Below, one piece after another: positions 23,344-53,046 of a DNA stretch of 64,000 nt; positions within the stretch are counted from its first letter, which is position 1; every line of letters starts with the position of its first letter. The stretch lies in the sequence record KM190144; one strand, given 5' to 3'. The translations under genes and the position numbers were made by a program. The stretch comes from Escherichia phage Av-05. The notes beneath the pieces are model-generated. The model had not been told where the DNA came from, did not search any database, and was given only the letters and a program-made list of their open reading frames with translations.

Positions 23344-25380
23344 ACCATACGTAATCCCCTTTCCTCCAGAGCGTGTTACCTCCTTTCCTGCTGCTATTGT
23401 GTATGCTCTTGCGTTTCGTTCATGGGCATCCTCTTCCATCATGATACGTAAATACTCACCACCATCAAACTCAAAAGCCCCTGCTGCAGCAATCATACCT
23501 TCTAAGTTAGACCCGTCACAACCCATCAGGTAGTAGCCTTCAGGGACTGTCCAAAGACCCCGCATTTCTTTTCCCAACAAAACCTTCGGATCAGGCTTGG
23601 GCATGTTTGCGCAAACAGTGTGCTTGCACCTGCCCGTGTTAGTGATTCCAGAAAAACGTGCTGGAAGTTTTCCGTCAATGTCTAAACGAGGGTGATTTAA
23701 TAACCCTGTATCCGTCTTGTCCTCATCCATTGGGTCTAAAACAGATCGCCTGTTACGAAGTGATAACCACTTAACAATCTGTTTTGCCATATGCACATCA
23801 ATTTTCTCCAGATTTGGACACAGATGCCCAAAATTATCTTTTAGTTGAGGAGATGTCGGTAACTGGCGTGCCTTACGCCGAAATTTCTTAAATATCTCTG
23901 AATAACCTCTTTCAGATGCATGTCGATGGTCAAACTTACGCTCTGAAATGTTGAATTTCTCATCTGAATCATTAAGGTAGTCAAGAATAAGAGATTTATA
24001 CTCAGACTCAGCCAACTCTTCTATGTACTTCTTAACTAGTACATCAATTTCAGAATCTTCTCTGGCCTTTTTAAATTGATCCTTCGTAACGTCCTTTACA
24101 CGCCACAGTGTAGGTTTCCAACCAGCATCTTTGATCAGATATTTTTTAATGTCATCTTGATTGGAGATTTTCATTGGAACCATTAAATCTGGCATTTTTC
24201 TGTTTCGAAGGTCTTCTTTAGCCTTCTCTAGAAGATCCGGCGGCAAAGGTTCGAGTGTGTTCTCTTTGGTTCGCTGGGAACGAATGAAATTACCGTATAA
24301 AGCCGGATCTTCAATGCCATTCTGGATGCAATATCTCTCCCCTGCTGCACTTACATCCCCATTACTCTTAAAAGCTGTTTTTGGTGGGGCTTTAAACTCT
24401 AGAGCTTCTCTGTTAACAGGATAACCAAGTTTATATTCCAACCAATTCCACCCATGATAAGATATATTACCCGCTGTGTCAAAAGGGTTAGCTGGGAATT
24501 TTGGTTGTTGGGATTTCGTCATCTCTTTTTTTGGAAGAAGTGGTTCTACCTCTTCTTCAATCTCCCGCATCATCTTATCTATGCGGTCTCTTAATTTTTC
24601 TGCCTCCTCTCGATTAAAGTATACACCCTGTATTTCTTGCTCTATCATCAAATAGTCTGTGAGCATTCTCCTACGTAATGCATTTTTCCAATTAATCTGG
24701 TGCATCCCGTGAGGTTTATCAGCATACATGAACTGCTTGTCATCAGGCCATCGCGTACCATTTGACTCGTCAATAAGAGCTTTCCACACAAGTTCGTTAA
24801 TGATAACGTCTTCCCACACACGGTTTACATATTCCCACAATGGTTGATTACGCCAATCATCAATCTGTACTTTCTTGTTTGCCACACGATAACCCCATGC
24901 CAATAAGCCGTGTGGCCCAACCCTATCACGTTTTCCTGTTACAGGGTTTAATACAGAGTCTGGGCAGCCATTAGGCAATGGGCGATCTGGGTAAAGAACA
25001 CGACTCATTGAAAGAGTGTCGTAAAGATTTACCTGTTTATTACCTATCGTCCCCATACATTTTGGGTCTTTGAACATATCATATTCAATCCCAGAAAGTT
25101 TTTTCCACAGACGTAAATCATAGCCAAACAGGTTATGTATTGCTATCCCTCTTGGTTCGGTCTGTAACCAAGAGTAAAAATCATCATAAGAAAGGATTCG
25201 TAAATTAACACCTTCTTTGCTGCGTGCAAAATTAACTGCACTCTGGTATTCCTTGTGAGCAGGATCGAGAAACAACACCCAGTTATTTACAGCATATTCT
25301 TTAAAAAGTGTGCAGTGATATTTAGTTGCCTCTTCTAATAATCCGTCAGCCTCTGTATCGGCTAAAAAAAGTCCTTTCAT
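23344..25380 (-). CDS. DNA polymerase, family A, exon 1 of 3 (3'-5' exonuclease plus N-terminal polymerase part)
   Basis: MKGLFLADTEADGLLEEATKYHC resembles T7 gp5 N-terminus (exo motif I); ends KGITYG at motif B; start at ATG with TAGGAGGAG SD. Confidence 0.65.
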
Positions 25381-25575
25381 ACTCCTCCTATTCAAGATGG
25401 GCTTGACTGTATCGTCGCCCATCTCTTAGTTGGTTATAGATTATGTGGAAAACTACCTATTTTTGATTTATGTTTCTTTGCCAAAGGGCTTCTCTTGGCG
25501 GGAATGTATCCCTCAAGCCCCTTGGCAACACGAATAGCTAACTCATCATATTTTACATGTATCCTCTTTTTTCTC

Positions 25576-30748: not shown

Positions 30749-32053
30749 CTACTTACCAGGGAAAGTCTCTTCATAAAACTTAACAAGACGTTGATCAACG
30801 ATAATATCTTTATCCCTGATCCTACGTAATAACCTTAATCCTTTTGCACTTGTTGCTCTGCTAAAAGCCACGTATGCCATGCCCGGTGCAAAAGTCCCAT
30901 TGCCAAAGTCAACATTAACTTCCGGTAATGTTAATCCTTGTGCTTTGTGTATTGTAACAGCCCACCCAAGACGAATCGGTAAAGCCCTGTACTCACCAAT
31001 GATAATCTTCTCAATTTCTTCAGTTATTGTACCATCTGGGTTTTTCACCTTTATGGGGTTATACTCAACATTTTCCCACACATAAGGTTCTACGTCAACA
31101 ATATCCCCATTTTCAAGACGGACTCTAACACTGTACCTACGTAGTTCAACAATCTCTCCACGGGAACCATTCACATAGCTTGGTTCATTTAGTCCTTTAG
31201 GGTCATTGACAGTAATCATCACCTGCGCCCCCTCTTTCAGATACAACTCTTCCGGTACAGGTGTCTGGTTAAATTGCCCTGTCTTTTTTGCCTTGTAAAC
31301 TGTTGGGATTCCAGGTATTGCATCAAAACGTTTTTTGTTTATTTTGTCTGCTGCCGCGTTTGTTGAGGTTATTGTTATAGCATCCAAGGGTTTTCCCATG
31401 TTGTAGCAATAAGTATTCATAAACTCAACAATCTCTGGAATACGCTCTCCCTTGCGAAGGCAATTAAGAAGTGTTGAAAAATGAACACTACTTTGCCTGT
31501 ATATTTTATCAAGAAATACAGGATATGGGTTCAATTCTTTCCATGTTTTAGAAAAGCAACAAAGTTCTGTGTCGTGGAACTGGTAGTAGATCTCTTTTTC
31601 TTCACCTTTCAAAACAGGTGGATTCTGTAAGAAATCCCCGAACATGCACACCTGCAAACCACCGAAAGGCTCTTTAGGTTTTTTACGTGCCAGACGACAT
31701 TTCATGTCCATTTCCCAAAGTTTGTCTGCCCTGAACATACTTATCTCTTCAATAATAAGAATCTTCAGTGCTTTACTTTTAAGCAACTTCTTAGCCTTTG
31801 CCTTTATCTCTTCTGCATCTTTTTTAGTGGACACGCCTAATGAAAGTCCGAAAGCTCTGTGTGCCGTCATACCATCCACATTAATGGCAGCAGCCCCTGT
31901 AGGGGCCACTGTCAAGACTGAACCTGCGTATAAGGATTGGATAGTTTTTATGGTATGGCTCTTTCCAGCACCTGCATAACCACTGATAAACACATTTTCA
32001 CCGGACATTATAGCGCCAAGAGCATCTTCAACGCCAACCCCGTATTGAGACAT
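30749..32053 (-). CDS. SF1 DNA helicase (Dda/RecD-like)
   Basis: Walker A GYAGAGKSHT; C-terminal HKAQGLT...AYVAFSRA helicase motifs. Confidence 0.6.
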   Translation of the reverse strand: MSQYGVGVEDALGAIMSGENVFISGYAGAGKSHTIKTIQSLYAGSVLTVAPTGAAAINVDGMTAHRAFGLSLGVSTKKDAEEIKAKAKKLLKSKALKILIIEEISMFRADKLWEMDMKCRLARKKPKEPFGGLQVCMFGDFLQNPPVLKGEEKEIYYQFHDTELCCFSKTWKELNPYPVFLDKIYRQSSVHFSTLLNCLRKGERIPEIVEFMNTYCYNMGKPLDAITITSTNAAADKINKKRFDAIPGIPTVYKAKKTGQFNQTPVPEELYLKEGAQVMITVNDPKGLNEPSYVNGSRGEIVELRRYSVRVRLENGDIVDVEPYVWENVEYNPIKVKNPDGTITEEIEKIIIGEYRALPIRLGWAVTIHKAQGLTLPEVNVDFGNGTFAPGMAYVAFSRATSAKGLRLLRRIRDKDIIVDQRLVKFYEETFPGK

Positions 32054-33066
32054 CAGTCCTCCTTAGATTCTTGTAGATAAATCTCTTCAAGAATTTTACC
32101 CTGTACACCAATGACAATAATATCTGGCGCACCTGCTGGTTTTGGTGTTCCTGTCAGAACTTCATAACGACAGCAACGGCATTTTTTCTGGTTATAGTCA
32201 TAAGGGACACTGACAATATCTGCCGGATCCACAGATACTTCTACAAGTACCCTTGAAGTCTTCTCAAAGGTAGTGGCATAGTCAATAGATGCAACATGCA
32301 AACCTTGGCTACATGTTCTATTGGGATTATCCTCAACCATATTACGTGGCATGGAAATAACTTGCCCTTTATAATTAGGAACTTTACCTGTATGACAATC
32401 TCGTGGGCCATCTACAGTTATCTTAATTTTCTTGTATGCCTTAATATTTCCGTTTTCAAGGATCTCAAGATCATTATGTTTTACAAAATCATAAAGCATT
32501 TTAACAGAAGCATACGACGGGTTGTGTAGCAACTTCTGCATGAATTTGACATATCGTTCGTCAAAGCAATCATTCTCAATATCTTTAATGATTCGTTTAG
32601 CAATACTGCTTTCCTGTTTTTGCCCGTGCCAATACAAAACACCATCTATCAATACTAAATTATCACCAAAATCAATGGTCTTTTTCTTTTCTGCTTCTTT
32701 CTCTTCTAAAATACGTTGTACAGCAGCATCTATTCCTCCTGTCCAAAGGATAACACCAACTTCTTTGAAGATGGGGCTGCTACTATTTAGAGTATATTGT
32801 TCACCATTTAACAAAGTGATATGAATATTGTCTTGGGTAACAAGGACAATTGGTTGTGCAAGAGAATGCACTGGCTTCATAATACCTACAGGATCTTCCT
32901 TGGCCTTTTTGGTTGTCGGCATTCCTTTTTTGGGTGCAACTGTCCAGCGTTTAAGAACATTTAGACCACGATCAACAACCATCATATTATTTTTCTTAGC
33001 GTATTCACGAGCTTCACGACGTGACATGAATAAAGGATTACTCACCTTTTCCTCCTTTGCTGTCAA
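32053..33066 (-). CDS. rIIB: rIIB-like protein
   Basis: C-terminal region ...RTCSQGLHVASIDY...VSVPYDYN... resembles T4 rIIB; directly downstream of rIIA; start uncertain. Confidence 0.7.
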   Translation of the reverse strand: MTAKEEKVSNPLFMSRREAREYAKKNNMMVVDRGLNVLKRWTVAPKKGMPTTKKAKEDPVGIMKPVHSLAQPIVLVTQDNIHITLLNGEQYTLNSSSPIFKEVGVILWTGGIDAAVQRILEEKEAEKKKTIDFGDNLVLIDGVLYWHGQKQESSIAKRIIKDIENDCFDERYVKFMQKLLHNPSYASVKMLYDFVKHNDLEILENGNIKAYKKIKITVDGPRDCHTGKVPNYKGQVISMPRNMVEDNPNRTCSQGLHVASIDYATTFEKTSRVLVEVSVDPADIVSVPYDYNQKKCRCCRYEVLTGTPKPAGAPDIIVIGVQGKILEEIYLQESKED

Positions 33067-35038
33067 TAAATTTACGATACTCTAGCATCTCTGGAGTATT
33101 GAAATGCCTAATATTAATGTATTTTAACAATGGGTAGCGATCTTTCTTAATTTGTAGCAGCTTTTTACCAATTCTCTTCTTGGCCTCTATCATCCATAAT
33201 GCTTTCTCACGGCTATCTTCGTAGCCAGGAACTGAACAATAACTGGGCATGTTTACCTTCATCTCCCATTTTGGGAAACTGGCTACCATCACACCAAAAT
33301 AGCTAAGCTCTTTAACAATGTTATGATACTCATGATCTTTCCCCACTTCTTGATATAAATGATATTCAAGAAGGTTAGTTTTTGCAAGAGCATGAATATC
33401 CTCCTCAGTTATAACCCGTGCCTCATCTGGCAGCCAACTTGATCTGTTTAAAGGCACAATGTATAACTTACCTGCCACACCAAGATGTTTAAGAAATGTT
33501 GGTGGTTGCTTTCTCCAAGTTGTTCTAAGATTGGAAACGTATCCTAACGGGCATAATCCTTTCACCTGCCCACCCCAGTAGACCATAGCCGCCTCAATAT
33601 CTTCAAATTGAGCACGGGAAATACGGGTTACATCTACGGAGCCATCTTGGTTGATTATCCAAACTTTATGACCCGGTTCGTAATAACCATAGCCACCATA
33701 CTTTTTATCTGCTTTTTGCACTGGTCGTTTTTCAAGTTCAGATAACTTGAAAATCATCCCTTCAAAGAATTTATCACTGTATAAGGACAGAGCGTAATCA
33801 GCATCGGTTATAAACGATCTCTTACCGAACTTCTCTGCAAGCCAGTTACATTTAGAACGCACATACTTGCGATCATCATTGTAAACCAGTGGATGACCAT
33901 TCATCAACTCTGCGTATGAATAACGCTCATCCTTACCACGGCGTGAGCCTTCGCCACCATATGTTTCACAGTAATCTATGTAAGAACCATCAGTATAATT
34001 CTTGAATTTATTTGCAATAAAAGCAGCACCGTATTTTGTGGCGAAGTAACCGCCAATAAACTTCATATGATCAAGGACTGCTTTTAAAGTTGGCAGATCG
34101 CTTAATTCTTTTGTGATTTCTTCTCCGCGAAGTCGGATAGCTTTCGTCACAAAACTTTCAAGTTTATCACGGAATCCTCCGTCATTCTTTCCTTCTACTG
34201 TCCATTCTCGGCCTGGGTCTACATTACAATCCCCAATAGGGATAGATACCGTCATCATGGGCAGTTCTTTACGAGTCGAGAGATAATCAGAAAGATATGG
34301 TTGCTGACCCATGATAACAACACTATCCGCGTTTCTTGAAATGCTACTATACATCTCAAGAACCCAGCCAGTCTCCTCATCCTCATAACGATACTGAACA
34401 GGATAAGTGCGATCTTCAATCTGAGTTTTAACAAAAGGATCGTTAATGATATATGGAAATTTAGCATAGCGAAGGCATTTTACAATAGCCAGCCGATAAG
34501 CTCCTGTTTCCCAAGTGTTTACGTTAAATTTAACCTCTACACCATTCTCCTCTGTTGTTTCACAAGAGAATAAAGGCACAACCTCTGGGATTCCACTGTT
34601 TTTATGGACAGAGTATGTTGTTTTCACTCCATCTTTAACAGAAATAACTGTGAACATATCTGTTACTGCAAGAGGCGCTTTTGACCCAATACCTTTCGCG
34701 CCAATCAGATCATTACTGTTTCTTTTTGTGGACTCACCAATCATCATGAATGTACGTGTTACCATCTCATGATCCATACCTAACCCTGTATCCTTAACAG
34801 AATACCAAGGTTCCAAGTCTGTTGGTGAGTGGATGATGATGGGTTTGTCAGAACACCCTGCCTCTGTGTGAGCATCTACAGCGTTGAAGAGAGGCTCTCG
34901 TACTGCTGCTAAAGGTTTATCTTTATAAATTCCATCGATAAGAATACTGAAAGTCTCAGGATTCATTGCAATTGATGCTTGGTATCTTTCTACGTTCCCA
35001 GTTACCTGAACTTTGTTGTCAGATCTTTGAATAATCAT
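33038..35038 (-). CDS. rIIA: rIIA-like protein
   Basis: GHKL/HATPase-like N and G boxes (EPLFNAVDAH, GAKGIGSKAP) as in T4 rIIA; size 666 aa. Confidence 0.7.
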   Translation of the reverse strand: MIIQRSDNKVQVTGNVERYQASIAMNPETFSILIDGIYKDKPLAAVREPLFNAVDAHTEAGCSDKPIIIHSPTDLEPWYSVKDTGLGMDHEMVTRTFMMIGESTKRNSNDLIGAKGIGSKAPLAVTDMFTVISVKDGVKTTYSVHKNSGIPEVVPLFSCETTEENGVEVKFNVNTWETGAYRLAIVKCLRYAKFPYIINDPFVKTQIEDRTYPVQYRYEDEETGWVLEMYSSISRNADSVVIMGQQPYLSDYLSTRKELPMMTVSIPIGDCNVDPGREWTVEGKNDGGFRDKLESFVTKAIRLRGEEITKELSDLPTLKAVLDHMKFIGGYFATKYGAAFIANKFKNYTDGSYIDYCETYGGEGSRRGKDERYSYAELMNGHPLVYNDDRKYVRSKCNWLAEKFGKRSFITDADYALSLYSDKFFEGMIFKLSELEKRPVQKADKKYGGYGYYEPGHKVWIINQDGSVDVTRISRAQFEDIEAAMVYWGGQVKGLCPLGYVSNLRTTWRKQPPTFLKHLGVAGKLYIVPLNRSSWLPDEARVITEEDIHALAKTNLLEYHLYQEVGKDHEYHNIVKELSYFGVMVASFPKWEMKVNMPSYCSVPGYEDSREKALWMIEAKKRIGKKLLQIKKDRYPLLKYINIRHFNTPEMLEYRKFIDSKGGKGE

Positions 35039-35058: not shown

Positions 35059-35604
35059 TTATGCGTCAGGATGCTTGTAAAAAATATGATTCCCAACCTT
35101 CACTGTTCTCACCATAACTTTTGTCCAAGATGGTCTAACAGTAGTTGCATGATAGTACGTTGCTGATTTTGTGTAGTCAAGAGCTTTGTATAAACTTTTG
35201 TGGTCTTTATGCAATCTCATCAAGATTTTAGCATAAAATTTAGCCCTCAACCATCTATCCTTTTCATAAACTTTAAAGGATTGCCCACCGAATGTCCAAG
35301 AGAATTGCCCTCGCTGATAAACTACTTTCTTGATAGTACGAGGGAAATTTTTGTCATCCTTTCTGTTCAGCGTGGCAAACGCGACACCCATCATTCCATA
35401 ATCGCCTTCACCTCTTCCTTCTTTATACATATTACAGGCAAGAATATTAAGCTCTGTATCATTCTTCTTGCAAATGTGAAGAACTCTGGGCTTCTTTGCA
35501 CTTTCTTTGGCTAGAACAGGAGTAATAGACAGAGAAAGTGCACAGCAAACTGCAAATAATAAAGATCTTATTTTCAAAACTAACTCCAGACAAATAAGCC
35601 CCAT
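35059..35604 (-). CDS. secreted SleB/CwlJ-like cell-wall hydrolase
   Basis: signal-peptide-like N-terminus; GRGEGDYGMMGVAFATLNR and YQRGQFSW motifs; start uncertain. Confidence 0.45.
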   Translation of the reverse strand: MGLICLELVLKIRSLLFAVCCALSLSITPVLAKESAKKPRVLHICKKNDTELNILACNMYKEGRGEGDYGMMGVAFATLNRKDDKNFPRTIKKVVYQRGQFSWTFGGQSFKVYEKDRWLRAKFYAKILMRLHKDHKSLYKALDYTKSATYYHATTVRPSWTKVMVRTVKVGNHIFYKHPDA

Positions 35605-35618
35605 GAAGGGGCTTCTTG

Positions 35619-35960
35619 TTAACGATGGGTAATATCTCCAGATATTGTGTTCACACTACCATGGATCGTATTTGCGCAAACATCACCAGACACCGAAGAC
35701 ACATTGCCTAAAATATCTTTTTCAACATTAATATCCCCAGATGTTGAGATCACACCATTAGAGACATTTCCATAAACATTGATACCACCTGATGTTGTGC
35801 GTACCTCTTTAGCATCACCTTTGATAATAACTGTGATGTTTTTATCGTTTGTGGTGTGAACTAAATCACCATTGATATATACATTATCACCCTTAGTAGT
35901 GATAGAGATACTACCATTGGTATAGTTTCCAGAAATTGTATTGCCGTTAATTGTAATCAT
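35619..35960 (-). CDS. beta-repeat protein (bactofilin-like?)
   Basis: repetitive ...INGNTISGNYTNGSISITT...GDINV...GNVS... pattern; start at internal ATG. Confidence 0.35.
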   Translation of the reverse strand: MITINGNTISGNYTNGSISITTKGDNVYINGDLVHTTNDKNITVIIKGDAKEVRTTSGGINVYGNVSNGVISTSGDINVEKDILGNVSSVSGDVCANTIHGSVNTISGDITHR

Positions 35961-36131
35961 TGTTTTGTTTCTCTTTAACAATATGTGCTTTCTGAACAGA
36001 GTATACAAATGTTTTATTGTCTTCAATAAACTCTCTGCCCTGTTCTTCATTCTCAAAAATAATTGTGTCACACTTTGCCTTTAACATACCACGTTCTACA
36101 GTTGTGTGTGTCGTAGAAACAATTAAAGCCA

Positions 36132-37172
36132 TTAAGACACCTCGTTAAGTTGTTCCATGTACCAGCTACGGGCTTTATTTGTTGTAAATTTTGCCACGTC
36201 TTTCATAGAAAGAGAATTGGCTTCTAGCACATCAGCTTCTTCTTTGTTGATATCTCGGTTAACCCATGCGATAAATGCCCCCAGAGATGCGATGTCCAAT
36301 CCAATCTCTTGCAAACCTTGTTGCAAGCGGTTCTCGGTGACTGCATACTCCACAAAATCTTTGATAGATTGCAGTTTCACAGGATCAACAAAGGCTAGGG
36401 TTTTCACTTTAGAGACAGAATGTTTTTGCCCTTTCACTTTAAACCAAAGTGCAGAAACATGTGCCAAGTGGCGATCTTTAGGTGTCCATACCACACCCTC
36501 ACCAACACCAGATACACCAAAATATTTACCTACTGGGCACTCTTTTTCCACACCTTCGGTGATCTGTGCAATTTCTGATTGCACTGTCTCTGGCATGTTA
36601 AAAGGAATATCCAGTTCCCACTTACCAAAAGTTAAAATATTATAAATGCGTTGTTCTGGTAATCCAATGCCAAGAATATCGTCTAAAGCTAACCATTTTC
36701 GATGGTCATTCTCTTTTCCTACTGCCACACGGAAAATAGTAAAGAAAGGCATGATTTCAGATACCGCAACACCTTTCTGGATACCTTTTCCTGAAAATTC
36801 TCCAGCAATTTCTACTGGGAACTTAAATTCAATACCCCGATCTTCGCAGAGTTGCTTAACTTGCTCCAACAGGAGCTTATGGTCCTTTTCAACCATAAAG
36901 GCCATAAACCCATAATTGTCTTCTTCCAAAGACAAAACGCGTTCTTTGGACTGGTATACAACCTCATCTTCAGAATTAAAGACTACACGGCAATTAGTCC
37001 CGTGAATTTTAACTGTTCCCACATAAGGAATGAGATATTGGTCTGGAGAGGCAACCTTACGCTTTATATTGCCATTCTCATCACGACCATCATAGGTTAA
37101 ACGATCATGAATCGCTCGGATAACATTGCGAAATTGGCTAGTGCTTGGATACTTAGTTACTTGCATTATCAT
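36132..37172 (-). CDS. RNA ligase 2-like (Rnl2 family)
   Basis: nucleotidyltransferase motif I KIHGTN and EFSGKGIQK segment as in T4 Rnl2. Confidence 0.6.
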   Translation of the reverse strand: MIMQVTKYPSTSQFRNVIRAIHDRLTYDGRDENGNIKRKVASPDQYLIPYVGTVKIHGTNCRVVFNSEDEVVYQSKERVLSLEEDNYGFMAFMVEKDHKLLLEQVKQLCEDRGIEFKFPVEIAGEFSGKGIQKGVAVSEIMPFFTIFRVAVGKENDHRKWLALDDILGIGLPEQRIYNILTFGKWELDIPFNMPETVQSEIAQITEGVEKECPVGKYFGVSGVGEGVVWTPKDRHLAHVSALWFKVKGQKHSVSKVKTLAFVDPVKLQSIKDFVEYAVTENRLQQGLQEIGLDIASLGAFIAWVNRDINKEEADVLEANSLSMKDVAKFTTNKARSWYMEQLNEVS

Positions 37173-37539
37173 CTTCCTTATTAATAAAAGTCACACCAAG
37201 AGTTGCCTGGGCAAGAAGTTTCGTGATCTCCTGGCTCCATACAGGACTGGAGATAAAATGTTGTAATTGGAGGCTACCTAAGCGATAGGCACTGTTCATC
37301 GTAATAGCATAGATTTCTCCATCGTGCAGGATCAGACTTTCGACAACAGAAGTCCTGATATTAGAACCACTAAATCCACGCTTTTTGAGGTCATCTGCTA
37401 AGTATCCACAAATGCATCGAACATCTTTTGTATAACCAAAACCGAAATAGGGTTCAGCACCGAACAGGATACCAGCGTATCTCTTCCCACAGACATAGGT
37501 ATCTTTAGATATGCCTGTTACAGATTTACTTTCCATCAT
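37153..37539 (-). CDS. hypothetical protein
   Basis: 128-codon ORF. Confidence 0.3.
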   Translation of the reverse strand: MMESKSVTGISKDTYVCGKRYAGILFGAEPYFGFGYTKDVRCICGYLADDLKKRGFSGSNIRTSVVESLILHDGEIYAITMNSAYRLGSLQLQHFISSPVWSQEITKLLAQATLGVTFINKEDDNASN

Positions 37540-37739
37540 TGGCCCTCCACATCGTCAATATCTTCCATACCATCTTGCCACAGAACTTCATAGCAAGCGT
37601 CATAAATTGCGCTCATAGCATCTTTACGATCTAACACATCTACAATTTTTGGATCAATACTTTTAATTGCTTCCGCAATTTTATCGTAAGCAATATCAGG
37701 ATGCATGTTCTTTTTTGCCATCTGGGATCTCCTCTTCAT
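37536..37739 (-). CDS. hypothetical protein
   Basis: 67-codon ORF. Confidence 0.25.
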   Translation of the reverse strand: MKRRSQMAKKNMHPDIAYDKIAEAIKSIDPKIVDVLDRKDAMSAIYDACYEVLWQDGMEDIDDVEGQ

Positions 37740-38217
37740 TTAAGACATAAATTGTCACATCACAATCATGGAGAACAGATTCTATCATAGTTTCTATGAT
37801 TTTCCAATCCCCACCTGCTAGTCCAGCACCTATTTTTGGCAGCCCGATCTTATAATCAGACATAAAACCATCTGTGTGCCTTTGCAAACAATCTCGCATT
37901 GCTGCTAAGGAATCGTAAAGGGCGTTATAATTCAGATCCCTCACACCCATTCTACGCCCATTATAACCGTATTGTGTGTACAGATTAAAACCAGCCAGTT
38001 TACCTTCGTTCATGACAACCCAAGTATAACTGCCCAGTTTTGTTCGATCACCTTTCTCTGTCTTTAAATCTTCAGCATACATTTTTGGGAATGCATTCTT
38101 TATTTCTTTAGCAATTCCAGACCCCATGGTGCAAAATGTATTACAACCATGAGCTATTACATTAACATCCCTTTTAAGTGCTGCCTCTATTAAGCAACCA
38201 ACTTTATACTTAAGCAT
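37696..38217 (-). CDS. macro-domain protein
   Basis: VIAHGCNTFCTMGSGIAKEI and IGAGLAGGDW motifs; paralog of 54450-54917; start by alignment to paralog. Confidence 0.55.
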   Translation of the reverse strand: MLKYKVGCLIEAALKRDVNVIAHGCNTFCTMGSGIAKEIKNAFPKMYAEDLKTEKGDRTKLGSYTWVVMNEGKLAGFNLYTQYGYNGRRMGVRDLNYNALYDSLAAMRDCLQRHTDGFMSDYKIGLPKIGAGLAGGDWKIIETMIESVLHDCDVTIYVLNEEEIPDGKKEHAS

Positions 38218-38564
38218 TGTCTGATACCTCTTCGCATTCGTATGGATAGATATCCAGTCTTTTCCCATTCCATTCGCAAGAGTAACACTCAAGAAAACTA
38301 CCATTAAATATTTCTTCTCTTACTTCAAGAATATCTCCTGTTTTTGGATATCCATCAACATCCGAAAAATCAGAAATCATTTTAACCTTCATTCACAACT
38401 CCTTTCAAGGAAGGCATTCATACTTTCCAATGCCTCGCTTTTATTTTTAGCACAAACAACAAACACACGCTTATTTTTATAGGTGTATCCTGCCATGACC
38501 ATATCGGATCTTTCAATCCACCATTTCTCATGTAGCTGGTCTTTCTTAAATTTATGTTTTGCCA

Positions 38565-39021: not shown

Positions 39022-40230
39022 TTAATTTAAAATTGCATCTACATCTTTTGCAAAGTTCTTGTGATATTCAGTAATAATCTGCATGACAACAGGATACTTC
39101 TTAAGTAACTTCGCTGGCAGTCTGTCACGAAGGCCATCTAACAAAATACCCTTCCCTGTAGAGCTGTCATTAATAAACGTCATGAAGACAGATGATACAA
39201 AATCACGGTTGGAATGAGCATCATCTTTACCAAAGTTATCATACAGATATTGCAAGAAATTGGCTGAGAAGTCAATAATCTGATCATCTGTGTAGTTGGT
39301 ATTCTTCATAGCCTTACGTAGCCAGATGCAACCTTGTGATCCTAGCGTCCACAATACATCAGAGCTATCAGAGCCAGTGTGTTCTTTAATTGAACCATCC
39401 ATTACTTTCTCAATGGGGACCATATCAGCAACGCGAGTATGGTAATACCATAACTCTTTCATTAATGGCCCACCAATACACCCTTGCAAAGCAGCCATTG
39501 CAAGACGGGAAGTCAGATCACCATCCTCATACGCATACAGAATATCACTTGCAGTAACCCAAGTTCGTGGTGTGGCATATGCAGGACTGTTAATCTCATA
39601 CATGGCCTCGAAGTTTTCCAGTTTATCGGGATTGGCCTGGATAAAACCAATTACTGATGGATGCACATTTTTACGCAACGCATAATCCTGCATCCACACA
39701 GAGGCATCGTAATCAAGTTCCACAACAATAAAACGGTTAGCCAAAGGAGCTTCCATCATGGTCACTGCCGTACCATCACCAGGACGGTTCCCTGCCGCTG
39801 CAAAAACTGCACCTTTTGGAAAGGTGTACTTACCAATTTTATGATCCAAAACAATCTGGAAAGCTACTTTCTGTAAGTAGTTATCTGCATGTAAAAGTTC
39901 ATCAAGGAAAATAATACCTTCCCAATCTGGGTCTTCTGGCCAGAAATCTGGTAGCGCATAGACTGTACGTGTTTTTCCATTGTCGTCTGTTACAGGAATC
40001 TGTACACCTACAACGTCTGTCGGATCTTTATCCGCAAGACGAAAATCAACGAGATTATCATCTCGTTCACCAAACATCTCATTGGCAACTTGCTTCATGA
40101 CTTGACTCTTACCAAGCCCAGCACCACCAAACATCATAAGTGCTTTGTTTGCCTTCTTACAAAATTTCATGAGGCTTGGAATATCACGGAGTGTAACACG
40201 ATGATCTTCAAAAATATTTCTACTAGACAT
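39022..40230 (-). CDS. MoxR/CobS-like AAA+ ATPase
   Basis: Walker A GGAGLGKS, Walker B IIFLDELL, arginine-finger region. Confidence 0.6.
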   Translation of the reverse strand: MSSRNIFEDHRVTLRDIPSLMKFCKKANKALMMFGGAGLGKSQVMKQVANEMFGERDDNLVDFRLADKDPTDVVGVQIPVTDDNGKTRTVYALPDFWPEDPDWEGIIFLDELLHADNYLQKVAFQIVLDHKIGKYTFPKGAVFAAAGNRPGDGTAVTMMEAPLANRFIVVELDYDASVWMQDYALRKNVHPSVIGFIQANPDKLENFEAMYEINSPAYATPRTWVTASDILYAYEDGDLTSRLAMAALQGCIGGPLMKELWYYHTRVADMVPIEKVMDGSIKEHTGSDSSDVLWTLGSQGCIWLRKAMKNTNYTDDQIIDFSANFLQYLYDNFGKDDAHSNRDFVSSVFMTFINDSSTGKGILLDGLRDRLPAKLLKKYPVVMQIITEYHKNFAKDVDAILN

Positions 40231-41006: not shown

Positions 41007-41222
41007 CTAATCCTCCCATTTTATCCATAAAGGGTATTCTGCAACATGCACTTTCTTACCCTTTTTGTTAATAAAAGTATACTCAACAAACTTTGCTATG
41101 TAAAACCTATTGTAATCCTCTGTACCTTTAACAGGACAGTCTGTCTTCCTTCTCTCCACCCATTCTCTGTGGATCACCGCTTTGTTCTTTGGATCAAAGG
41201 GGTGTGGTTGATAAACATCCAT
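41007..41222 (-). CDS. small conserved protein (paralog of 54899-55126)
   Basis: QPHPFDPKNKAVIHREW...EYTFINKKGKKVHVAEY shared with the + strand ORF. Confidence 0.4.
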   Translation of the reverse strand: MDVYQPHPFDPKNKAVIHREWVERRKTDCPVKGTEDYNRFYIAKFVEYTFINKKGKKVHVAEYPLWIKWED

Positions 41223-41719
41223 TATTTCCCCTCGAATCTTTTTCTTGCATCAACAAGTTTAAGATGCATTTCATGGTATTTCTTTAACCTTACCAAATCC
41301 TTATCTGATAAGGATTTAAGACGTTTTACGTCCATATTGTCTTTTAAATCAGCGAGTTTTACACGAATCGCATCATAATTAGTACAGATGCCCTCAATGT
41401 ACTCTTCTTCAGTCAGGCTCTGTTTCTTTGTTAGCAGAAGAACTGCATCTTTTACTCTGTTAGTGAACCCCAACATTACCAAATCGTAAGCTGTAACTTT
41501 GGTATCCTCAAGGATATCGTGAAGGACACCGATTGCCATTAGCTGTAAGTCATCATTACCAAGTTCATGCATCACCCTTAATGGGTGAAGAATGTATGGC
41601 ATTCCACCACGATCTTTCTGCTTAAGATGGTTTTCAGAGGCCAACTTTATAGCTAAAGCTAACTCCTGATGGGGTCTTAAATCTTGCATGTTACTAGGGA
41701 CAGACTTCGATTGTACCAT
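41222..41719 (-). CDS. HD-domain hydrolase (small alarmone hydrolase-like)
   Basis: HPLRVMHELG...VLHDILEDT resembles the SpoT/Mesh1 HD motif. Confidence 0.5.
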   Translation of the reverse strand: MVQSKSVPSNMQDLRPHQELALAIKLASENHLKQKDRGGMPYILHPLRVMHELGNDDLQLMAIGVLHDILEDTKVTAYDLVMLGFTNRVKDAVLLLTKKQSLTEEEYIEGICTNYDAIRVKLADLKDNMDVKRLKSLSDKDLVRLKKYHEMHLKLVDARKRFEGK

Positions 41720-42534: not shown

Positions 42535-42644
42535 GTCTGTCCTCTAAAAAACTTTCATTAGCTCTTAAGAGAGTACAGAACTAAAAAATCAAAGTCAACG
42601 CTTGACAAACTGGAAATTTGTGAGATACTACGAACACAAGCTAA

Positions 42645-43970: not shown

Positions 43971-45407
43971 ATGCAAAAAGAAGAATATGAAATGATTGCC
44001 AGATTAGAGAAGGATGCTGTAAAAATTATCCAATCGGCACGAATAGCTCTTTTAAAGTACCGACCATTCTACGGTACTTTGTTAAGTTCTCTTCCTTTAG
44101 TTGCGAACTGGAAATGGTTGCCAACAGCAGCTACTGACCACAAAAACCTCTACTTCAACCCTGAGTTTATTATGGGTATGCCTGAAGAAAGGAAGAAGAA
44201 GGTTTTTGAGCGTGTGGATAATCACCCCACAATGACACAACAAGAAAAAGATGACTATAAAGACTATGTGAACGTATTTTATCGTAAGAAAACACCCAAA
44301 GAGGTTGTTGTTATTCTTATGCACGAGCTACGTCATATTACAAATGACCATCTATCTCGTGGAAAAGCATTTGACTCTAAAACCTACAACACAGCAGCGG
44401 ACCACTATATCAATACAGATTTGGTAGTATCAGATCTCGGACCGCGCTCAAACCAGATGTGTTTCTTCCCAATGGGGAAACAGACAATCTTTGACAAAGA
44501 TAAAGAGTTTGGGTTTATGGCTTATTGCTATTGTGATTTTAATTTCCACGGCATGACAGCAGAGGAGATTTACAGTCTCATAAACAAAGGCCAGCCGTCT
44601 GTTGGCAAACCTATGGGCACACACATAGGGGATTATGATCAGGACAGCAATATCCTAGGGTATGAAGATCCTCACCCAGTGCCAAGCCAGACAGAAAAAG
44701 ATGATAATATGTCGTGGTCATCTGGTCTTATCGAAGCAGCAATGGAAGCAGCGGGAGGAGAGGGGCCGAAAGAGGTGCGTGATGTTATTGCAAGAATGCG
44801 TAAACCACACATAAATTATCTTCAGATAATAAAACAGCGTATGCTTTCTCGGATCAAGTCTAACCTGACATACAGGAAGCCATCTCGTAGGTCTGGATCT
44901 ATGACACAGGCACTTCGACAGTACGGAGCTATCGGTAAAAAACAGCATATCGTTTTACCAGGAAGAGAGTACGATAATACTATCGATATAGTTATTGGTT
45001 TTGATGTGTCTGGATCAATTTCGAAGGCAAATTTGGACAAAATCTTTGGAGAAATCGTAGGATTATGCCAGCTTTACCGTGTTTTTCGCGTGACATTGTT
45101 CTGTTGGTCAACAAAAGTCGGAGAGGTTAAAGTTTATACACACGAAAACATCAAGGAAATGCTTGATTATAAAGTGAATTCTACTGGTGGGACTCTTGCA
45201 GCATCAGCTTTTGAGTATATTGAAAATAACATTTTTGATGCAAAAGACGTTATTATTTTTACAGACGGGTATATAGAGGATTTAAGCCACAAGAAAAAAG
45301 ATTGGGGACGCAAATGGGATATTCTTTGGGTTATTTGTGGTCGTGGAAATAATAAATTTGTACCACCTTTCGGAAGGGCTGTAAATTTAGATGAACACGC
45401 AAAATAA
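43971..45407 (+). CDS. vWA-domain protein with N-terminal HExxH metallopeptidase-like motif (CobT/CoxE-like)
   Basis: LMHELRHITNDH motif; C-terminal MIDAS-like DVSGS; likely partner of the AAA+ ATPase at 39022-40230. Confidence 0.55.
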   Translation: MQKEEYEMIARLEKDAVKIIQSARIALLKYRPFYGTLLSSLPLVANWKWLPTAATDHKNLYFNPEFIMGMPEERKKKVFERVDNHPTMTQQEKDDYKDYVNVFYRKKTPKEVVVILMHELRHITNDHLSRGKAFDSKTYNTAADHYINTDLVVSDLGPRSNQMCFFPMGKQTIFDKDKEFGFMAYCYCDFNFHGMTAEEIYSLINKGQPSVGKPMGTHIGDYDQDSNILGYEDPHPVPSQTEKDDNMSWSSGLIEAAMEAAGGEGPKEVRDVIARMRKPHINYLQIIKQRMLSRIKSNLTYRKPSRRSGSMTQALRQYGAIGKKQHIVLPGREYDNTIDIVIGFDVSGSISKANLDKIFGEIVGLCQLYRVFRVTLFCWSTKVGEVKVYTHENIKEMLDYKVNSTGGTLAASAFEYIENNIFDAKDVIIFTDGYIEDLSHKKKDWGRKWDILWVICGRGNNKFVPPFGRAVNLDEHAK

Positions 45408-45825: not shown

Positions 45826-45928
45826 AATTTAACCACACAGGGAGGCTAACGCACGTAGTCTCCCATATGTCCCCATTTCAGGGACTATGTTATAGTAGTC
45901 CTAACAAAACAACAAAATGGAACCTAAA

Positions 45929-46192
45929 ATGAAAACTTTCAACGAATTCATCTCAGAATCGTCTGGTGTGAAAATTAACAAAGCGGTCAATCAGGTTATT
46001 GCTGATATTCTTAATTTGTATAACATTGACTTAACTCCGCATATCACGCTTGGTAACAAACGAAACTTTTTCATATTTAACACATCCGAACTTGACGAAA
46101 ATCAGTTCAATAACATTCAACGTTTTGCGAATGATAAAGGTCTTCGACATGAGCCTGGTGGCTATAAAAAATACGCAATATATTTGAAATAA
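45929..46192 (+). CDS. internal-protein-like small protein
   Basis: N-terminus MKTFNEFISES resembles the T4 internal protein capsid-targeting sequence. Confidence 0.4.
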   Translation: MKTFNEFISESSGVKINKAVNQVIADILNLYNIDLTPHITLGNKRNFFIFNTSELDENQFNNIQRFANDKGLRHEPGGYKKYAIYLK

Positions 46193-46252
46193 AGGTATAC
46201 AAGCCTATAGGACTATGTTATAGTAGTCCTATTAAAACATGAGGAGAATATT

Positions 46253-46558
46253 ATGAAATTAGGCGAAACCAACCGAATTGGTCTTTTTACAATATTTGCA
46301 TCACCTTTTTACGCAGCTCTTTCTGTTGCAGTATTACAAAAGGCTTACGATATGGATGGTGTTCCTGGTTTTGTATTCTTATCACCATTTTTATTATTCG
46401 TCGGGGCTTTGTTATTATATGCCACGACTAGTTTTGACCATAACGTCTGGGTTAATTATAAATGTAAATTGTCTGAAGAAGAACATGCAGAAGCTCGTAA
46501 AAAAGCTATTGAATCTACCAATCTAGAAAATTTCATTAAAGAATGCCGAGGAAAATAA
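46253..46558 (+). CDS. membrane protein
   Basis: hydrophobic helices. Confidence 0.3.
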   Translation: MKLGETNRIGLFTIFASPFYAALSVAVLQKAYDMDGVPGFVFLSPFLLFVGALLLYATTSFDHNVWVNYKCKLSEEEHAEARKKAIESTNLENFIKECRGK

Positions 46559-46559
46559 T

Positions 46560-47246
46560 ATGAATAGTTCTAAAGTGTTTAATAGTCAAGCTCGTGCAGT
46601 AGGTGGTTTTGCTCATAACGTACAAAATGACCAAATCAAAAATGAACCAATGTTCTTTAACTGTGATTTGAGTTTTGCTTGGGATAACGGTGGTCCAATT
46701 ACTCGTAGCTTTATCCAAAATCTCCCTGACGATTGGAAAGGCTCGGATGTAGTATTTGATTCACGAGTCCACATGCTGATGCCTGGTTGGTATCCTGCTA
46801 TTCCTGGATATCACCATGATGATGTTCCTCGCCCTGATATTCCAGTCGGCCAACACTTTATTACTGCAGGACAACCTGACTATGATAACCCTCGTTACCA
46901 TTCTGAACATATTCTTGGTCTTGTTAACGCTGATGTGTGTCCTACTCATTTTGCAACAGGAACTGCAGAGTTCAGTCAGATTCCTGATGGCGAACTTATC
47001 TATCGCCAGTGGCACAAAGAAGTCCTCGAAAAAATTGAAAAAGGTGAACTAGAGAAATGGGAAGCTCCGGACCGTACTCTTCTTCAGTTTGATTGGCAAA
47101 CATGGCACACTGGTTCTCGTGCAATTAGTAATGGATGGCGTTGGTTCGGACGTGTATCTCGTAATACAGACCGAGTTAAAAAGATTACTAATGAAATTCG
47201 TGTCAATGCTCAAGTTTATCTGGAATTCCCTATGGAAGGCTGGTAA
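46560..47246 (+). CDS. hypothetical protein
   Basis: 228-codon ORF, His/Asp/Trp-rich. Confidence 0.35.
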   Translation: MNSSKVFNSQARAVGGFAHNVQNDQIKNEPMFFNCDLSFAWDNGGPITRSFIQNLPDDWKGSDVVFDSRVHMLMPGWYPAIPGYHHDDVPRPDIPVGQHFITAGQPDYDNPRYHSEHILGLVNADVCPTHFATGTAEFSQIPDGELIYRQWHKEVLEKIEKGELEKWEAPDRTLLQFDWQTWHTGSRAISNGWRWFGRVSRNTDRVKKITNEIRVNAQVYLEFPMEGW

Positions 47247-47737
47247 TGATTAACAAAACATATTGGTCTAATATAGACGACGGTAATGAAGGTATTTCGT
47301 ACTATTCAGTAGATTGGACAGGATGTCCATCCTACTTAGTGAAACGTATTTGTCAAGAATTTAAAATCGACCAGCCAGCAGGTATTATCGTGAACAGATA
47401 CATTAATGGATATCAACCTATCGATGAAGTAATACGAACAACTCAAGCTGAGCTTGAAAAGTTTTTCAATAAGTGCCAATGGATAACAGGATGGATTATA
47501 TTTGTACCGTCGGTATGGTTTTTTAGTACTAAAGTAAGTGCCTTTGCCATACCAGATATTATCGCTATATTATTAGCATCTACTATCGTAAGTATTATTG
47601 GTGGTATTATTGGTGGAGGTACTATAGGCATCATTATTAATCTTGTTAAAAGTAGTTTACAGGAACGTAAAGACAAGATAAAGGCCAAGAATAATGAAGT
47701 TGAACGTTTTATTACCGAATGCAGGAATTTGAGATGA
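47246..47737 (+). CDS. membrane protein
   Basis: hydrophobic segment with GG(I/T)IG repeats. Confidence 0.3.
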   Translation: MINKTYWSNIDDGNEGISYYSVDWTGCPSYLVKRICQEFKIDQPAGIIVNRYINGYQPIDEVIRTTQAELEKFFNKCQWITGWIIFVPSVWFFSTKVSAFAIPDIIAILLASTIVSIIGGIIGGGTIGIIINLVKSSLQERKDKIKAKNNEVERFITECRNLR

Positions 47738-47970
47738 GTATAGCAATTTACATTAAATCAGAATCATGTGATAGTTATCTGTACACATATGATAAAGATG
47801 TGTCAGAAGAAAAAATCAAAGACGATCTTAATATGGACCTTGATATGTTCTGTCCTATTGCAGATTACAAACTTGCGGTTTCTAATAGTGAAAGTCCATC
47901 TAAAGAAACGCGCATTGAAGAATTTATGTCCGAATTAATGGCCAAATCATGGGACCGAGATGATGAGTAA
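47719..47970 (+). CDS. hypothetical protein
   Basis: 83-codon ORF. Confidence 0.3.
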   Translation: MQEFEMSIAIYIKSESCDSYLYTYDKDVSEEKIKDDLNMDLDMFCPIADYKLAVSNSESPSKETRIEEFMSELMAKSWDRDDE

Positions 47971-48418
47971 GAAAAATAAAGTGAAAGAACTATCAGCCGG
48001 TATTATCTTCATGACAAAAGATAAAGAGTTATTCATGGGCCGTGTAACTGGTTCTCGTCCTAAAGGTGCATTAGCTCATCGGTGGGATATTCCTAAAGGC
48101 CGTGTCGAGCCAGGTGAATCTCCTATTGAAGCCGCTATTCGTGAATGCGAAGAAGAAACTGGGTTTACACAATATGACCCTGCCTTCCTGAAAGACCTAG
48201 GCGAACATCATTACTCAGACAATAAGAATATTCATCTATTCCAATATACCATCCCTGTAGAGCACGAGCAATTCAGAAACAGTGTTTGTAATTCCTATCA
48301 TACATTCCCAGACGGACGACAGATTCCTGAATTTGATGCATTCGCTTTAATTAAACCTTCTCAATGGGAATATGTAATGGGCAAATCATTATATAAGGTG
48401 CTCACTACCATCCTATAA
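47960..48418 (+). CDS. nudE: Nudix hydrolase
   Basis: Nudix box GRVEPGESPIEAAIRECEEETG; immediately upstream of e as in T4. Confidence 0.6.
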   Translation: MMSKKNKVKELSAGIIFMTKDKELFMGRVTGSRPKGALAHRWDIPKGRVEPGESPIEAAIRECEEETGFTQYDPAFLKDLGEHHYSDNKNIHLFQYTIPVEHEQFRNSVCNSYHTFPDGRQIPEFDAFALIKPSQWEYVMGKSLYKVLTTIL

Positions 48419-48425
48419 GTAATAA

Positions 48426-48451
48426 ATACCTCCTATAAACGTAGGAGGTAT
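48426..48451 (+). promoter_or_regulatory. SD-sequestering hairpin with late-promoter-like TATAAACG in the loop
   Basis: perfect inverted repeat ATACCTCCTA/TAGGAGGTAT; 3' arm is the ribosome-binding site of e. Confidence 0.5.
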
Positions 48452-48452
48452 T

Positions 48453-48941
48453 ATGAATATATTTGAAATGCTTCGTAATGACGAAGGTCTTAGACTGACT
48501 TTATACAAAGACACCGAAGGCTTTTGGACGATTGGCATAGGCCATTTAGTAACAAAGAACCCGTCTTTAGCCGTAGCTAAAGCTGAACTTGACAGAATGA
48601 TCGGTCGTAAATGCAACGGTACAATTACCCTTGATGAGGCTGAAAAGCTATTTAATGAAGACGTCGATAAAGCCGTTCGCGGAATCTTGGGTAATGCTAA
48701 ACTTAAACCGGTATATGATTCTTTAGATGCGGTTCGTCGATGTGCATTGGTCAATATGGTCTTTCAAATGGGTGTAGCAGGCGTTGCTGGTTTTACTAAT
48801 TCTCTTCGTATGCTTCAACAGAAACGTTGGGATGAAGCGGCAGTAAATCTAGCCCAATCTAAATGGTATCGTCAGACACCTAATCGCGCGAAACGCGTAA
48901 TCTCAACATTTAAAACAGGAACTTGGAAAGCGTATATATGA
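48453..48941 (+). CDS. e: T4-type lysozyme (endolysin)
   Basis: about 80 percent identical by eye to T4 lysozyme (MNIFEMLR...EGLRL...YKDTEG...TIGIGHL...). Confidence 0.9.
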
Positions 48942-49219
48942 AAACATACAGTGAATTTTTATCAGAATCTATTCTTAACGAAGCTACTGACACATTTGCA
49001 ACTAAGCTAGGTGCAGCTTTAGTTGAAGCTGAAAGTCTATTAGCACGTATTTCTGAACTTGCCAGTAAGATAGATACTCGCAAATTTGAGCGCACCAGTG
49101 ATATCGTTAAGCTTGAAGCACTGCTGCGTATGTGCGATAAACCGGAAGAAATCGCTAAGAACGGCTCGTTAATGAAACAACGTCTTGAAAAATATATTTC
49201 AGGCGCTTCAGAAAAATAG
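48938..49219 (+). CDS. internal-protein-like protein
   Basis: N-terminus [11 protein letters not shown]; ATG overlaps the e stop (ATGA). Confidence 0.5.
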
Positions 49220-49220
49220 T

Positions 49221-49250
49221 GTTTACTTCCTCCAAGGGTTTTGATACTAT
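49221..49250 (+). promoter_or_regulatory. T4-early-type promoter
   Basis: -35 GTTTAC, 17-18 nt spacer, -10 TACTAT; spacer is inverted-repeat partner of the denV SD. Confidence 0.5.
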
Positions 49251-49277
49251 ACATCTATCAACTACTTGGAGGAAATT

Positions 49278-49691: not shown

Positions 49692-49697
49692 GGAAAA

Positions 49698-49958: not shown

Positions 49959-49961
49959 ATT

Positions 49962-49991
49962 GTTTACGCTTAAGTATTAATATGGTATAAT
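49962..49991 (+). promoter_or_regulatory. T4-early-type promoter
   Basis: -35 GTTTAC, about 18 nt spacer, -10 TATAAT. Confidence 0.45.
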
Positions 49992-50021
49992 TACTCTATC
50001 AAAACAAACAAGGAAACAAAA

Positions 50022-50600: not shown

Positions 50601-50629
50601 TAAGGCCTATTTACATTTAAAGGAAACAT

Positions 50630-51978: not shown

Positions 51979-51984
51979 GGTTAT

Positions 51985-53042: not shown

Positions 53043-53046
53043 AGTA

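Follow-up and report, generated by a model that had tools for sequence, protein, structure and literature searches.

Why do a secreted cell-wall hydrolase, a repetitive beta-rich protein and an RNA ligase lie side by side next to rIIA in Escherichia phage Av-05? We followed this question in a stretch of 64,000 nucleotides from sequence record KM190144 (the window), in which the three genes occupy positions 35,059 to 37,172. Taken as a whole, the locus is probably best explained as a set of independent accessory genes in a leftward-transcribed region. The hydrolase would be exported to the periplasm by a cleavable Sec signal peptide and would cut peptidoglycan through its SleB/CwlJ-type domain, as an extra muralytic enzyme beside the canonical GH19 endolysin of the lineage. 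The ligase would be an ATP-dependent enzyme with an adenylyltransferase domain and an Rnl2-specific C-terminal domain, and the protein of 113 amino acids (aa) a cytoplasmic, bactofilin-like beta-solenoid that is translationally coupled to the ligase operon. Judged from comparative gene order, the three are neighbours by descent in a variable accessory region and not one system.

Gene order next to rIIA

By its sequence relationships Av-05 is an rV5-type myovirus of the Vequintavirinae, not a T4-type phage, and serves as type of the genus Avunavirus (PMC11370258). In nucleotide sequence the region shares 95% identity with Escherichia phage vB_EcoM_TH18 (TH18), also of the Vequintavirinae, and the ligase, hydrolase, rIIA and beta-repeat proteins are exact matches in the Av-05 record (120,938 bp). 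The genes are already annotated in RefSeq, as 'RNA ligase family protein' (YP_009111227), 'endolysin / cell wall hydrolase SleB' (YP_009111224), 'RIIA' and 'hypothetical', and a SleB-like hydrolase with a signal peptide has already been discussed for the subfamily. An earlier note, made from the sequence alone, had named a SleB/CwlJ-like hydrolase with a signal peptide, a repetitive beta-rich protein and an Rnl2-family ligase; the domain searches that it proposed reproduce these assignments, with the values given below.

In PVP-SE1 the same order is found, running from the macro-domain gene through the homologue of a 128-aa protein, the ligase, small open reading frames (ORFs), the beta-helix gene and SleB to the genome end and rIIA. 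In rV5, MoxR is followed by one gene, SleB and rIIA, and no ligase or beta-helix gene lies between them. The beta-helix homologues of Acinetobacter, Aeromonas, jumbo and metagenomic phages stand in unrelated contexts (two further homologue-bearing contigs, one of 534 bp and one unannotated, gave no context), and the adjacency of SleB and rIIA is the sole stable linkage within the subfamily. Because rV5 lacks the ligase and beta-helix genes and the beta-helix contexts are scattered, the arrangement reads as inherited gene order and not as a functional module; on this reading the three genes are not a functional cluster, and their linkage fails outside the subfamily.

All genes within 30-42.5 kb of the window lie on the minus strand. 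Those around the locus are as follows.

32053-33066, minus: rIIB (PHROG 609, E=5.1e-67)
33038-35038, minus: rIIA (PHROG 612, E=3.6e-125; HATPase_c_3)
35059-35577 from a TTG start (ORF to 35604), minus: SleB/CwlJ-type (Hydrolase_2) cell-wall hydrolase (PF07486)
35596-35614, minus: terminator-like GC-rich hairpin (terminator scan)
35619-35960, minus: predicted beta-solenoid protein, 113 aa, no signal peptide (PHROG 3163)
35947-36132, minus: 61-aa protein (PHROG 9816, E=1.6e-30)
36132-37172, minus: Rnl2-like RNA ligase (PF09414, PHROG 548)
37153-37539, minus: 128-aa protein with the PHROG label 'methyltransferase' (PHROG 16099, E=1.3e-60)
37696-38304, minus: macro-domain protein (PF01661; PHROG 335 'phosphatase')

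Transcription runs from the macro-domain gene through a 67-aa ORF, the 128-aa gene, the ligase and the 61-aa gene to the beta-repeat gene, and then past the hairpin into the hydrolase, rIIA, rIIB and a Dda/Pif1-type helicase. The trio therefore does adjoin rIIA/rIIB as first described, although it is transcriptionally upstream, not downstream, of rIIA. Consecutive genes overlap from the 128-aa ORF through the beta-repeat gene, an arrangement that suggests translational coupling: the 3' end of the 128-aa gene overlaps the ligase start, the ATG of the 61-aa gene overlaps the ligase stop (TAATG), and the 3' end of the 61-aa gene overlaps the start of the beta-repeat gene. The hydrolase stop lies 20 nt from the rIIA start in Av-05, and in rV5 the hydrolase gene overlaps the rIIA start; the hydrolase is apparently co-transcribed with rIIA/rIIB. 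Neither of the two small proteins beside the ligase has a match in Pfam or NCBIfam. The homologue of the 128-aa gene in PVP-SE1 is gp237, at the same position, and no methyltransferase domain was detected in the Av-05 protein, which is also too small; we rejected it as a Hen1-like repair partner on these two grounds.

The hydrolase and its expression signals

The hydrolase matches Pfam Hydrolase_2 (PF07486, E=2.1e-19) with 70.5 bits against a cut-off of 27 and covers profile positions 1-100 of 100; it also matches PHROG 938 'endolysin' (E=1.3e-25) and the catalytic domain of Bacillus SleB (4F55, E=3e-7). Residue E53 (172-aa numbering) of the YxE(A/G)RGE motif is invariant across 20 homologues and aligns with the YGESRGE of Bacillus SleB, where the equivalent glutamate is catalytic. 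Against the equivalog of spore SleB (TIGR02869) the protein scores 47.9 bits, below the cut-off of 236.5, and matches profile positions 82-201 only. Bacillus SleB (4F55, 4FET; TIGR02869) thus has the Hydrolase_2 domain and the glutamate of E-x-R-G-E in common with the Av-05 protein, but it carries an N-terminal peptidoglycan-binding domain, whereas the Av-05 protein lacks one and has what appears to be a plain Sec signal peptide. Because the host has no spore cortex, the substrate cannot be muramic-delta-lactam peptidoglycan.

The public annotation starts the gene at an ATG at 35604 (181 aa), which is located in the hairpin loop. The true start is likely to be the TTG at 35577, which has GGAG (35584-35587) 6 nt upstream and gives a protein of 172 aa, and hydrolase homologues begin at an MK equivalent to it. 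From the TTG, the N-terminus reads MKIRSLLFAVCCALSLSITPVLA|KESAKK, with the n, h and c regions MKIR, SLLFAVCCALSLSIT and PVLA|KE; residues 1-23 (nt 35509-35577) would form the signal peptide, leaving a mature protein of 149 aa with an isoelectric point of about 10. With a 12-residue Kyte-Doolittle mean of 2.49 the h-region counts as strongly hydrophobic, and the PVLA|K cleavage site is kept in relatives, with Pro at -4 and Ala at -1. Because of this hydrophobicity and the conserved PVLA|K, the N-terminus looks like a cleavable Sec signal peptide rather than a signal-anchor-release (SAR) anchor, and we rejected a SAR endolysin on the same features. A lipoprotein reading was also rejected, since the cysteines of the h-region form no conserved lipobox and the rV5 homologue has none.

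Homologues of the hydrolase occur in 1,218 phage records, including T5-like phages and Pakpunaviruses, and these too carry export signals: Stitch (T5-like) begins with MKAALLLIAALTYSFNSHA|, and PAK_P4 has an N-terminal transmembrane domain. Within the Vequintavirinae, rV5 SleB, PVP-SE1 gp243, CB7_83 (Pectobacterium phage CB7) and CR3_087 (Cronobacter phage CR3) are 50-64% identical to the Av-05 protein and alike in size and signal peptide, and nothing substantive differs except the choice of start codon in public annotation. The rV5 gene stands at the matching position just before rIIA, and the PVP-SE1 gene follows the ligase and beta-helix genes. In TH18 a PG_binding_1+GH19 endolysin is encoded separately, beside PhoH, and its homologue PVP-SE1 gp146 is the characterised endolysin. 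The CB7 paper reports SleB-like proteins with a signal peptide in all Vequintavirinae genera, finds the protein toxic when expressed, and describes a holin candidate that overlaps the Certrevirus SleB-like gene (PMC7344957); the Septuagintavirus paper describes the same pair of wall enzymes (PMC11370258). No experimental data on PF07486 endolysins were found in the literature searched.

Endolysins with signal peptides are exported independently of a holin and are known in Gram-negative phages (PMC7692668). Those of Oenococcus phage fOg44 (Lys44) and the Campylobacter Fletchervirus resemble the Av-05 hydrolase in having an n/h/c signal before a muralytic domain. They differ from it in catalytic fold, and the Av-05 gene lies in an early-type region and has no holin as neighbour, in a lineage that has another, canonical endolysin. 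We consider the hydrolase most likely to be a holin-independent, Sec-exported accessory lysin.

The dose of this enzyme is apparently held low. Between the beta-solenoid and hydrolase genes lies the hairpin AAGCCCC-TTCAT-GGGGCTT followed by AUUUGU, with a minimum free energy of -16.3 kcal/mol (z=-3.0), and no promoter-like site was found between the hairpin and the hydrolase start. Because the terminator hairpin precedes the ribosome-binding site, no promoter-like site intervenes and the TTG start is weak, we infer that the gene relies on read-through for its expression and that its level is kept low, as would suit a toxic enzyme of the periplasm. The same succession, a GC-rich hairpin that ends in a U-rich tail, then GGAG, then a non-ATG start, is found in three genera, represented by Av-05 (TTG), PVP-SE1 (TTG) and rV5 (GTG); the stems differ (AGCCCC/GGGGCT versus CCCCGC/GCGGGG), and the folding energies range from -14 to -17 kcal/mol. 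The PAK_P4 homologue has an annotated terminator at the equivalent upstream place. The occurrence of a hairpin terminator and a non-ATG start before the hydrolase gene in three genera is a small new observation, and the conservation of the terminator and weak start suggests that the dose of the enzyme matters.

The ligase, its partners and the beta-solenoid protein

The ligase ORF encodes 346 aa, and a likely start at M3 (37166) gives a protein of 344 aa. It matches PF09414 (E=1.1e-9) and PHROG 548 'RNA ligase' (E=3.3e-72); a profile of its family finds T4 Rnl2 (2HVQ, E=6.4e-11) as its sole match in the PDB, with an alignment that spans both domains (ligase residues 52-340, 2HVQ residues 35-332). 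For the ligase as for the hydrolase, the fold is settled by these alignments with proteins of solved structure. The active-site lysine is K55, in KIHGTN. Invariant in an alignment of 26 sequences are K55, H57, G58 and N60 of motif I, E125 of motif III, F147 of motif IIIa, E225 of motif IV and K245 and K247 of motif V, as well as R282 and D307, which align with R266 and D292 in the C-terminal domain of T4 Rnl2. We take these two T4 residues to be essential, although a literature search gave no confirmation.

The protein scores 36.3 bits against the TIGR02307 equivalog cut-off of 197.15, its single-sequence match to T4 Rnl2 has an E of only about 0.01, and it has 2,535 relatives at E<=1e-3. Some members of the family carry an N-terminal metallophosphoesterase fusion; one metagenomic phage contig encodes cREC, a Metallophos-ligase fusion, Rnl1 and an AAA_33 kinase within about 4 kb, and also a DNA ligase. 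With T4 Rnl2 (RnlB, gp24.1; 2HVQ) the Av-05 ligase shares the two-domain architecture and motifs I, III, IIIa, IV and V, but it is very divergent and falls in a large separate phage clade in which some members have the metallophosphoesterase fusion. By these comparisons it is a divergent sister clade member, Rnl2-like in architecture and not an RnlB orthologue, and its expected activity is the joining of 3'-OH/5'-phosphate nicks where the RNA is structured or duplex.

The earlier note had regarded this ligase as unexplained because no polynucleotide kinase partner was visible. Within the window no such partner came to light: phmmer searches of all ORFs with T4 Pnk and contig-derived queries found no Pnkp-like gene, nor did Pfam and PHROG scans of the window ORFs outside 42.6-64 kb, and a Pfam scan of the concatenated ORFs of 11-42.5 kb gave few domains, among them neither a kinase/phosphatase nor a lysozyme. 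When candidates from the window were scanned one by one against Pfam and PHROG, they yielded an HD phosphohydrolase and a protein with the label 'thymidylate kinase', in which no P-loop is visible, but no Pnkp.

The partner set is found in TH18, where we searched the whole genome by phmmer with the same queries and confirmed the matches by Pfam (Metallophos, E=3.9e-8; RNA_lig_T4_1, E=1.2e-17; cREC_REC, E=1.7e-15; AAA_33, E=4e-10). The cassette lies near the right end (130,850-133,311) and is ordered metallophosphoesterase, 66-aa ORF, Rnl1-type ligase, a protein with the cyclic-phosphate-processing domain cREC, and AAA_33 kinase, with SIR2 and DNA ligase coming next. The same cassette is present in two independent metagenome contigs. 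The sequences of TH18 and of both contigs stop some 0.5 kb upstream of the gene for the phosphoesterase, an indication of a fixed genome terminus. A CCA-adding enzyme that includes an HD domain is encoded by TH18 as well. On the evidence of these homologies the RNA ligase is not orphaned: the lineage has a split kinase/phosphoesterase/cREC/Rnl1 cassette, and its closest relatives combine a split end-healing set with two predicted RNA ligases, analogous to T4 PseT, RnlA and RnlB. The logical steps match those of the T4 Pnkp+Rnl1 pathway and of cREC repair cassettes, which heal ends and then seal them. In TH18, however, the kinase and the phosphatase are two small proteins of their own, a metallophosphoesterase takes the place of the HAD-type phosphatase of T4 Pnkp, and the Rnl2-like gene and the cassette lie at opposite genome ends. 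End-healing would be provided in trans, by the AAA_33 kinase, metallophosphoesterase and cREC protein encoded with the Rnl1-type ligase near the other genome end, and together with the Rnl2-like ligase this set may form a T4-like RNA-repair toolkit against host ribotoxins.

The beta-repeat protein matches PHROG 3163 (E=9.5e-28), a family with 104 phage-record matches and 743 cluster representatives. Its homologues were collected by exhaustive HMMER, because a word-indexed search was too insensitive (6 matches; 22 for the hydrolase). The AlphaFold2 model, built on a 60-sequence alignment, is all beta with a predicted local distance difference test score (pLDDT) of 90.8 and confidently forms a beta-solenoid; SG[GD] turns are spaced 16-17 residues apart, the coil of about 17 residues is that of a right-handed beta-helix, and the isoelectric point is 5.4. 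Bactofilins (Thermus 6RIA), the MinC C-terminal domain and the DUF4097 'toastrack' are like it in fold class and in the coil of about 17 residues.

A rival reading makes the protein a phage bactofilin, which would polymerise into a scaffold and so reorganise the infected cell, for instance through interference with division or positioning. The coil period agrees with this, 4 of the 60 family members match Pfam Bactofilin weakly (best E=2.8e-5), and the BFVD matches, otherwise uncharacterised viral proteins, include one named 'Bactofilin'. We nevertheless find the identification doubtful: the Av-05 protein itself has no PF04519 match at E<=0.01, the Pfam matches of the family are marginal and scattered, with DUF4097 and FapA found about as often as Bactofilin, Foldseek against the PDB gave nothing significant, and, compared with bactofilins, the modelled protein lacks terminal tails, any membrane-targeting segment and significant membership of the sequence family. 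The literature searched gave no experimental data on phage bactofilins.

Competing explanations and the T4-like block

Could the three genes form one functional module after all, such as an envelope- and RNA-directed counter-defence unit whose members are co-located to work together? The order from the macro-domain gene to rIIA is kept between Av-05 and PVP-SE1 at 55-68% protein identity, and the overlaps of the ligase, 61-aa and beta-helix genes suggest translational coupling. We regard a module as highly improbable even so, for rV5 keeps SleB-rIIA without the ligase or beta-helix gene, the beta-helix homologues of other phages have genes for NAD salvage, ClpP, a lipoprotein, Gam or ERF as neighbours and neither SleB nor an RNA ligase in their vicinity, and the ligase homologues stand alone or with repair enzymes. 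The hairpin terminator also separates the ligase operon from the hydrolase, and the predicted compartments differ (periplasm versus cytoplasm). Several points weigh on the other side, against independent accessory genes with the roles proposed here. In PAK_P4, an unrelated Pseudomonas phage (79.5-84.8 kb), the SleB-like gene lies amid the genes for a DNA ligase, an HD phosphohydrolase, a metallophosphoesterase and an Rnl1 RNA ligase, which favours a module and hints at a recurring association that 'unrelated neighbours' leaves unexplained. The TIGR02307 score lies so far below the cut-off that the substrate preference of the ligase could differ from that of T4 Rnl2. The repair cassette is seen in relatives and not in the window, and Av-05 is absent among the 40 members listed for each cassette cluster (the clusters have 41-83 members), as it would be if the deposited record were incomplete. 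The signal-peptide assignment draws on sequence features and conservation, and the hydrolase lies among early-region genes with no adjoining holin, a position that gives late lysis no support. More generally, gene identities, domains, conserved residues, synteny, hairpins and the partner genes of relatives are direct observations, and export, the enzymatic activities, low-dose control and the biological roles are all read from them.

The SleB-like protein might instead be the principal endolysin, either of the signal-peptide type or of the SAR type released by a pinholin. Public records call it 'endolysin', it has an N-terminal export signal, the protein is toxic on expression and its Certrevirus homologue is overlapped by a holin candidate (PMC7344957), and Sec-dependent endolysins have precedents in Gram-negative phages (PMC7692668). 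This is unlikely, given the separate PG_binding_1+GH19 endolysin of relatives (in TH18, beside PhoH), the strongly hydrophobic h-region and conserved Pro-x-x-Ala site, unlike SAR domains, and the early-region place of the gene, which adjoins rIIA, follows a terminator and starts with TTG. A last proposal, which we hold to be rather improbable, is that either the hydrolase serves no lysis function and is an early, deliberately low-dose factor for remodelling periplasmic peptidoglycan or PHROG 3163 is an unrecognised class of phage bactofilin-like scaffolds. The first of these is raised because the terminator and non-ATG start are conserved and the gene has a fixed position ahead of rIIA/rIIB in the Vequintavirinae; if it were true, the hydrolase would work in connection with the membrane proteins rIIA and rIIB, for instance in envelope conditioning or in the control of lysis timing. 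Two modest leads stand out, a secreted wall hydrolase that over 1,200 phage genomes encode in addition to an endolysin and a widespread family of small beta-helix proteins.

The earlier note had also found it unexplained that there is a secreted hydrolase separate from a T4-type lysozyme. This lysozyme, e (48453-48941), belongs to a T4-like block of 11.3 kb at about 45882-57169, which also has nudE, denV (49278-49691), a gene for an SLT protein and tk (55518-56099) and encodes IPIII/IPII-like internal proteins with T4-type N-terminal targeting sequences. Positions 46206-57169 (10,963 bp) are 100.0% identical to the T4-like phage phiC120, and their identity to many Tequatroviruses is about 96%. 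Window positions 1-45889 are the reverse complement of TH18 from 45.8 kb to position 71, where similarity ends at a GGAC microhomology; beyond the block, window positions 57170-63435 correspond to TH18 58,378-64,645 in forward, that is opposite, relative orientation. About 12.5 kb of tail genes are absent between the flanks, and head and tail modules lie on opposite strands, whereas TH18 has its tail and head genes next to each other on a single strand. The left-junction point is exactly where TH18 and two independent contigs end, which suggests a natural genome terminus.

We conclude that the block is very probably an assembly chimera. A genuine horizontal acquisition, by which the T4-type lysozyme and the SleB-like enzyme would coexist with different origins, accords with a block that is contiguous in the deposited sequence, with a left junction that has only short microhomology (GGAC), as illegitimate recombination leaves, and with an intergenic right junction. 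It is nonetheless quite improbable. The block shows its 100.0% identity to a phage from the same laboratory as Av-05 (PMC4463512, PMC8022965), and Av-05 was assembled from 36-bp reads by authors who noted PVP-SE1-like ORFs together with 97% identity to RB69 (PMC4463512). The flanks at TH18 71 and 58,378, in opposite orientation, split the tail and head modules at the very point where TH18 and the two contigs end; the Av-05 record has 120.9 kb, compared with 131-138 kb for contigs with close homologues of the same genes; and the T4 internal proteins of the block, by their N-terminal sequences, look dependent on T4 head assembly. Because the block is a probable chimera, the T4 lysozyme is not to be counted as an Av-05 enzyme, and with the SleB-like enzyme already described and a GH19 endolysin present in TH18 the pairing largely loses its puzzle. 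Inferences that mix both parts of the genome ('second lysozyme', 'T4-type phage') are unsafe.

Within the block, the SLT-type protein (53571-54113, plus) has a signal-peptide-like N-terminus by eye and an 'ESS' motif, and T4-like relatives annotate its homologue as an SLT transglycosylase; it shows that secreted muralytic accessory enzymes are usual in T4-type phages too. Where the block starts there are two copies of the palindromic motif GGACTATGTTATAGTAGTCCT (45875-45895 and 46209-46229), with the left junction at its GGAC, and a run of nine A's follows the right junction (57170-57178).

Upstream of the ligase operon, the macro-domain protein (37696-38304) matches the macro domain of the antitoxin DarG (E=6.6e-10, well under the equivalog cut-off) and could be a DNA ADP-ribosyl glycohydrolase directed against DarT-type defence. 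Genes for a MoxR-type ATPase (bpMoxR, PHROG 1297; 39022-40230, minus), an HD phosphohydrolase (PHROG 990; 41222-41719, minus) and a DUF2201 metallopeptidase/VWA protein (43971-45407, plus) border a divergent intergenic region at about 42.55-42.66 kb, inside which lies a sigma-70-like site, TTGACA-16-GATACT (42602-42629). The DNA polymerase is apparently split (minus strand, span 20524-25422), with 693 aa encoded at 23341-25422 and a C-terminal piece of 117 aa at 22271-22624, and with HNH endonuclease ORFs between and after them (22760-23245, 21630-22175 and 20524-21045), and the TH18 annotation likewise has two polymerase coding sequences. The large terminase gene is also fragmented: the window has a 261-aa fragment at 62565-63350 (minus), and the TH18 pieces (63,775-67,488) are split by an HNH homing endonuclease.

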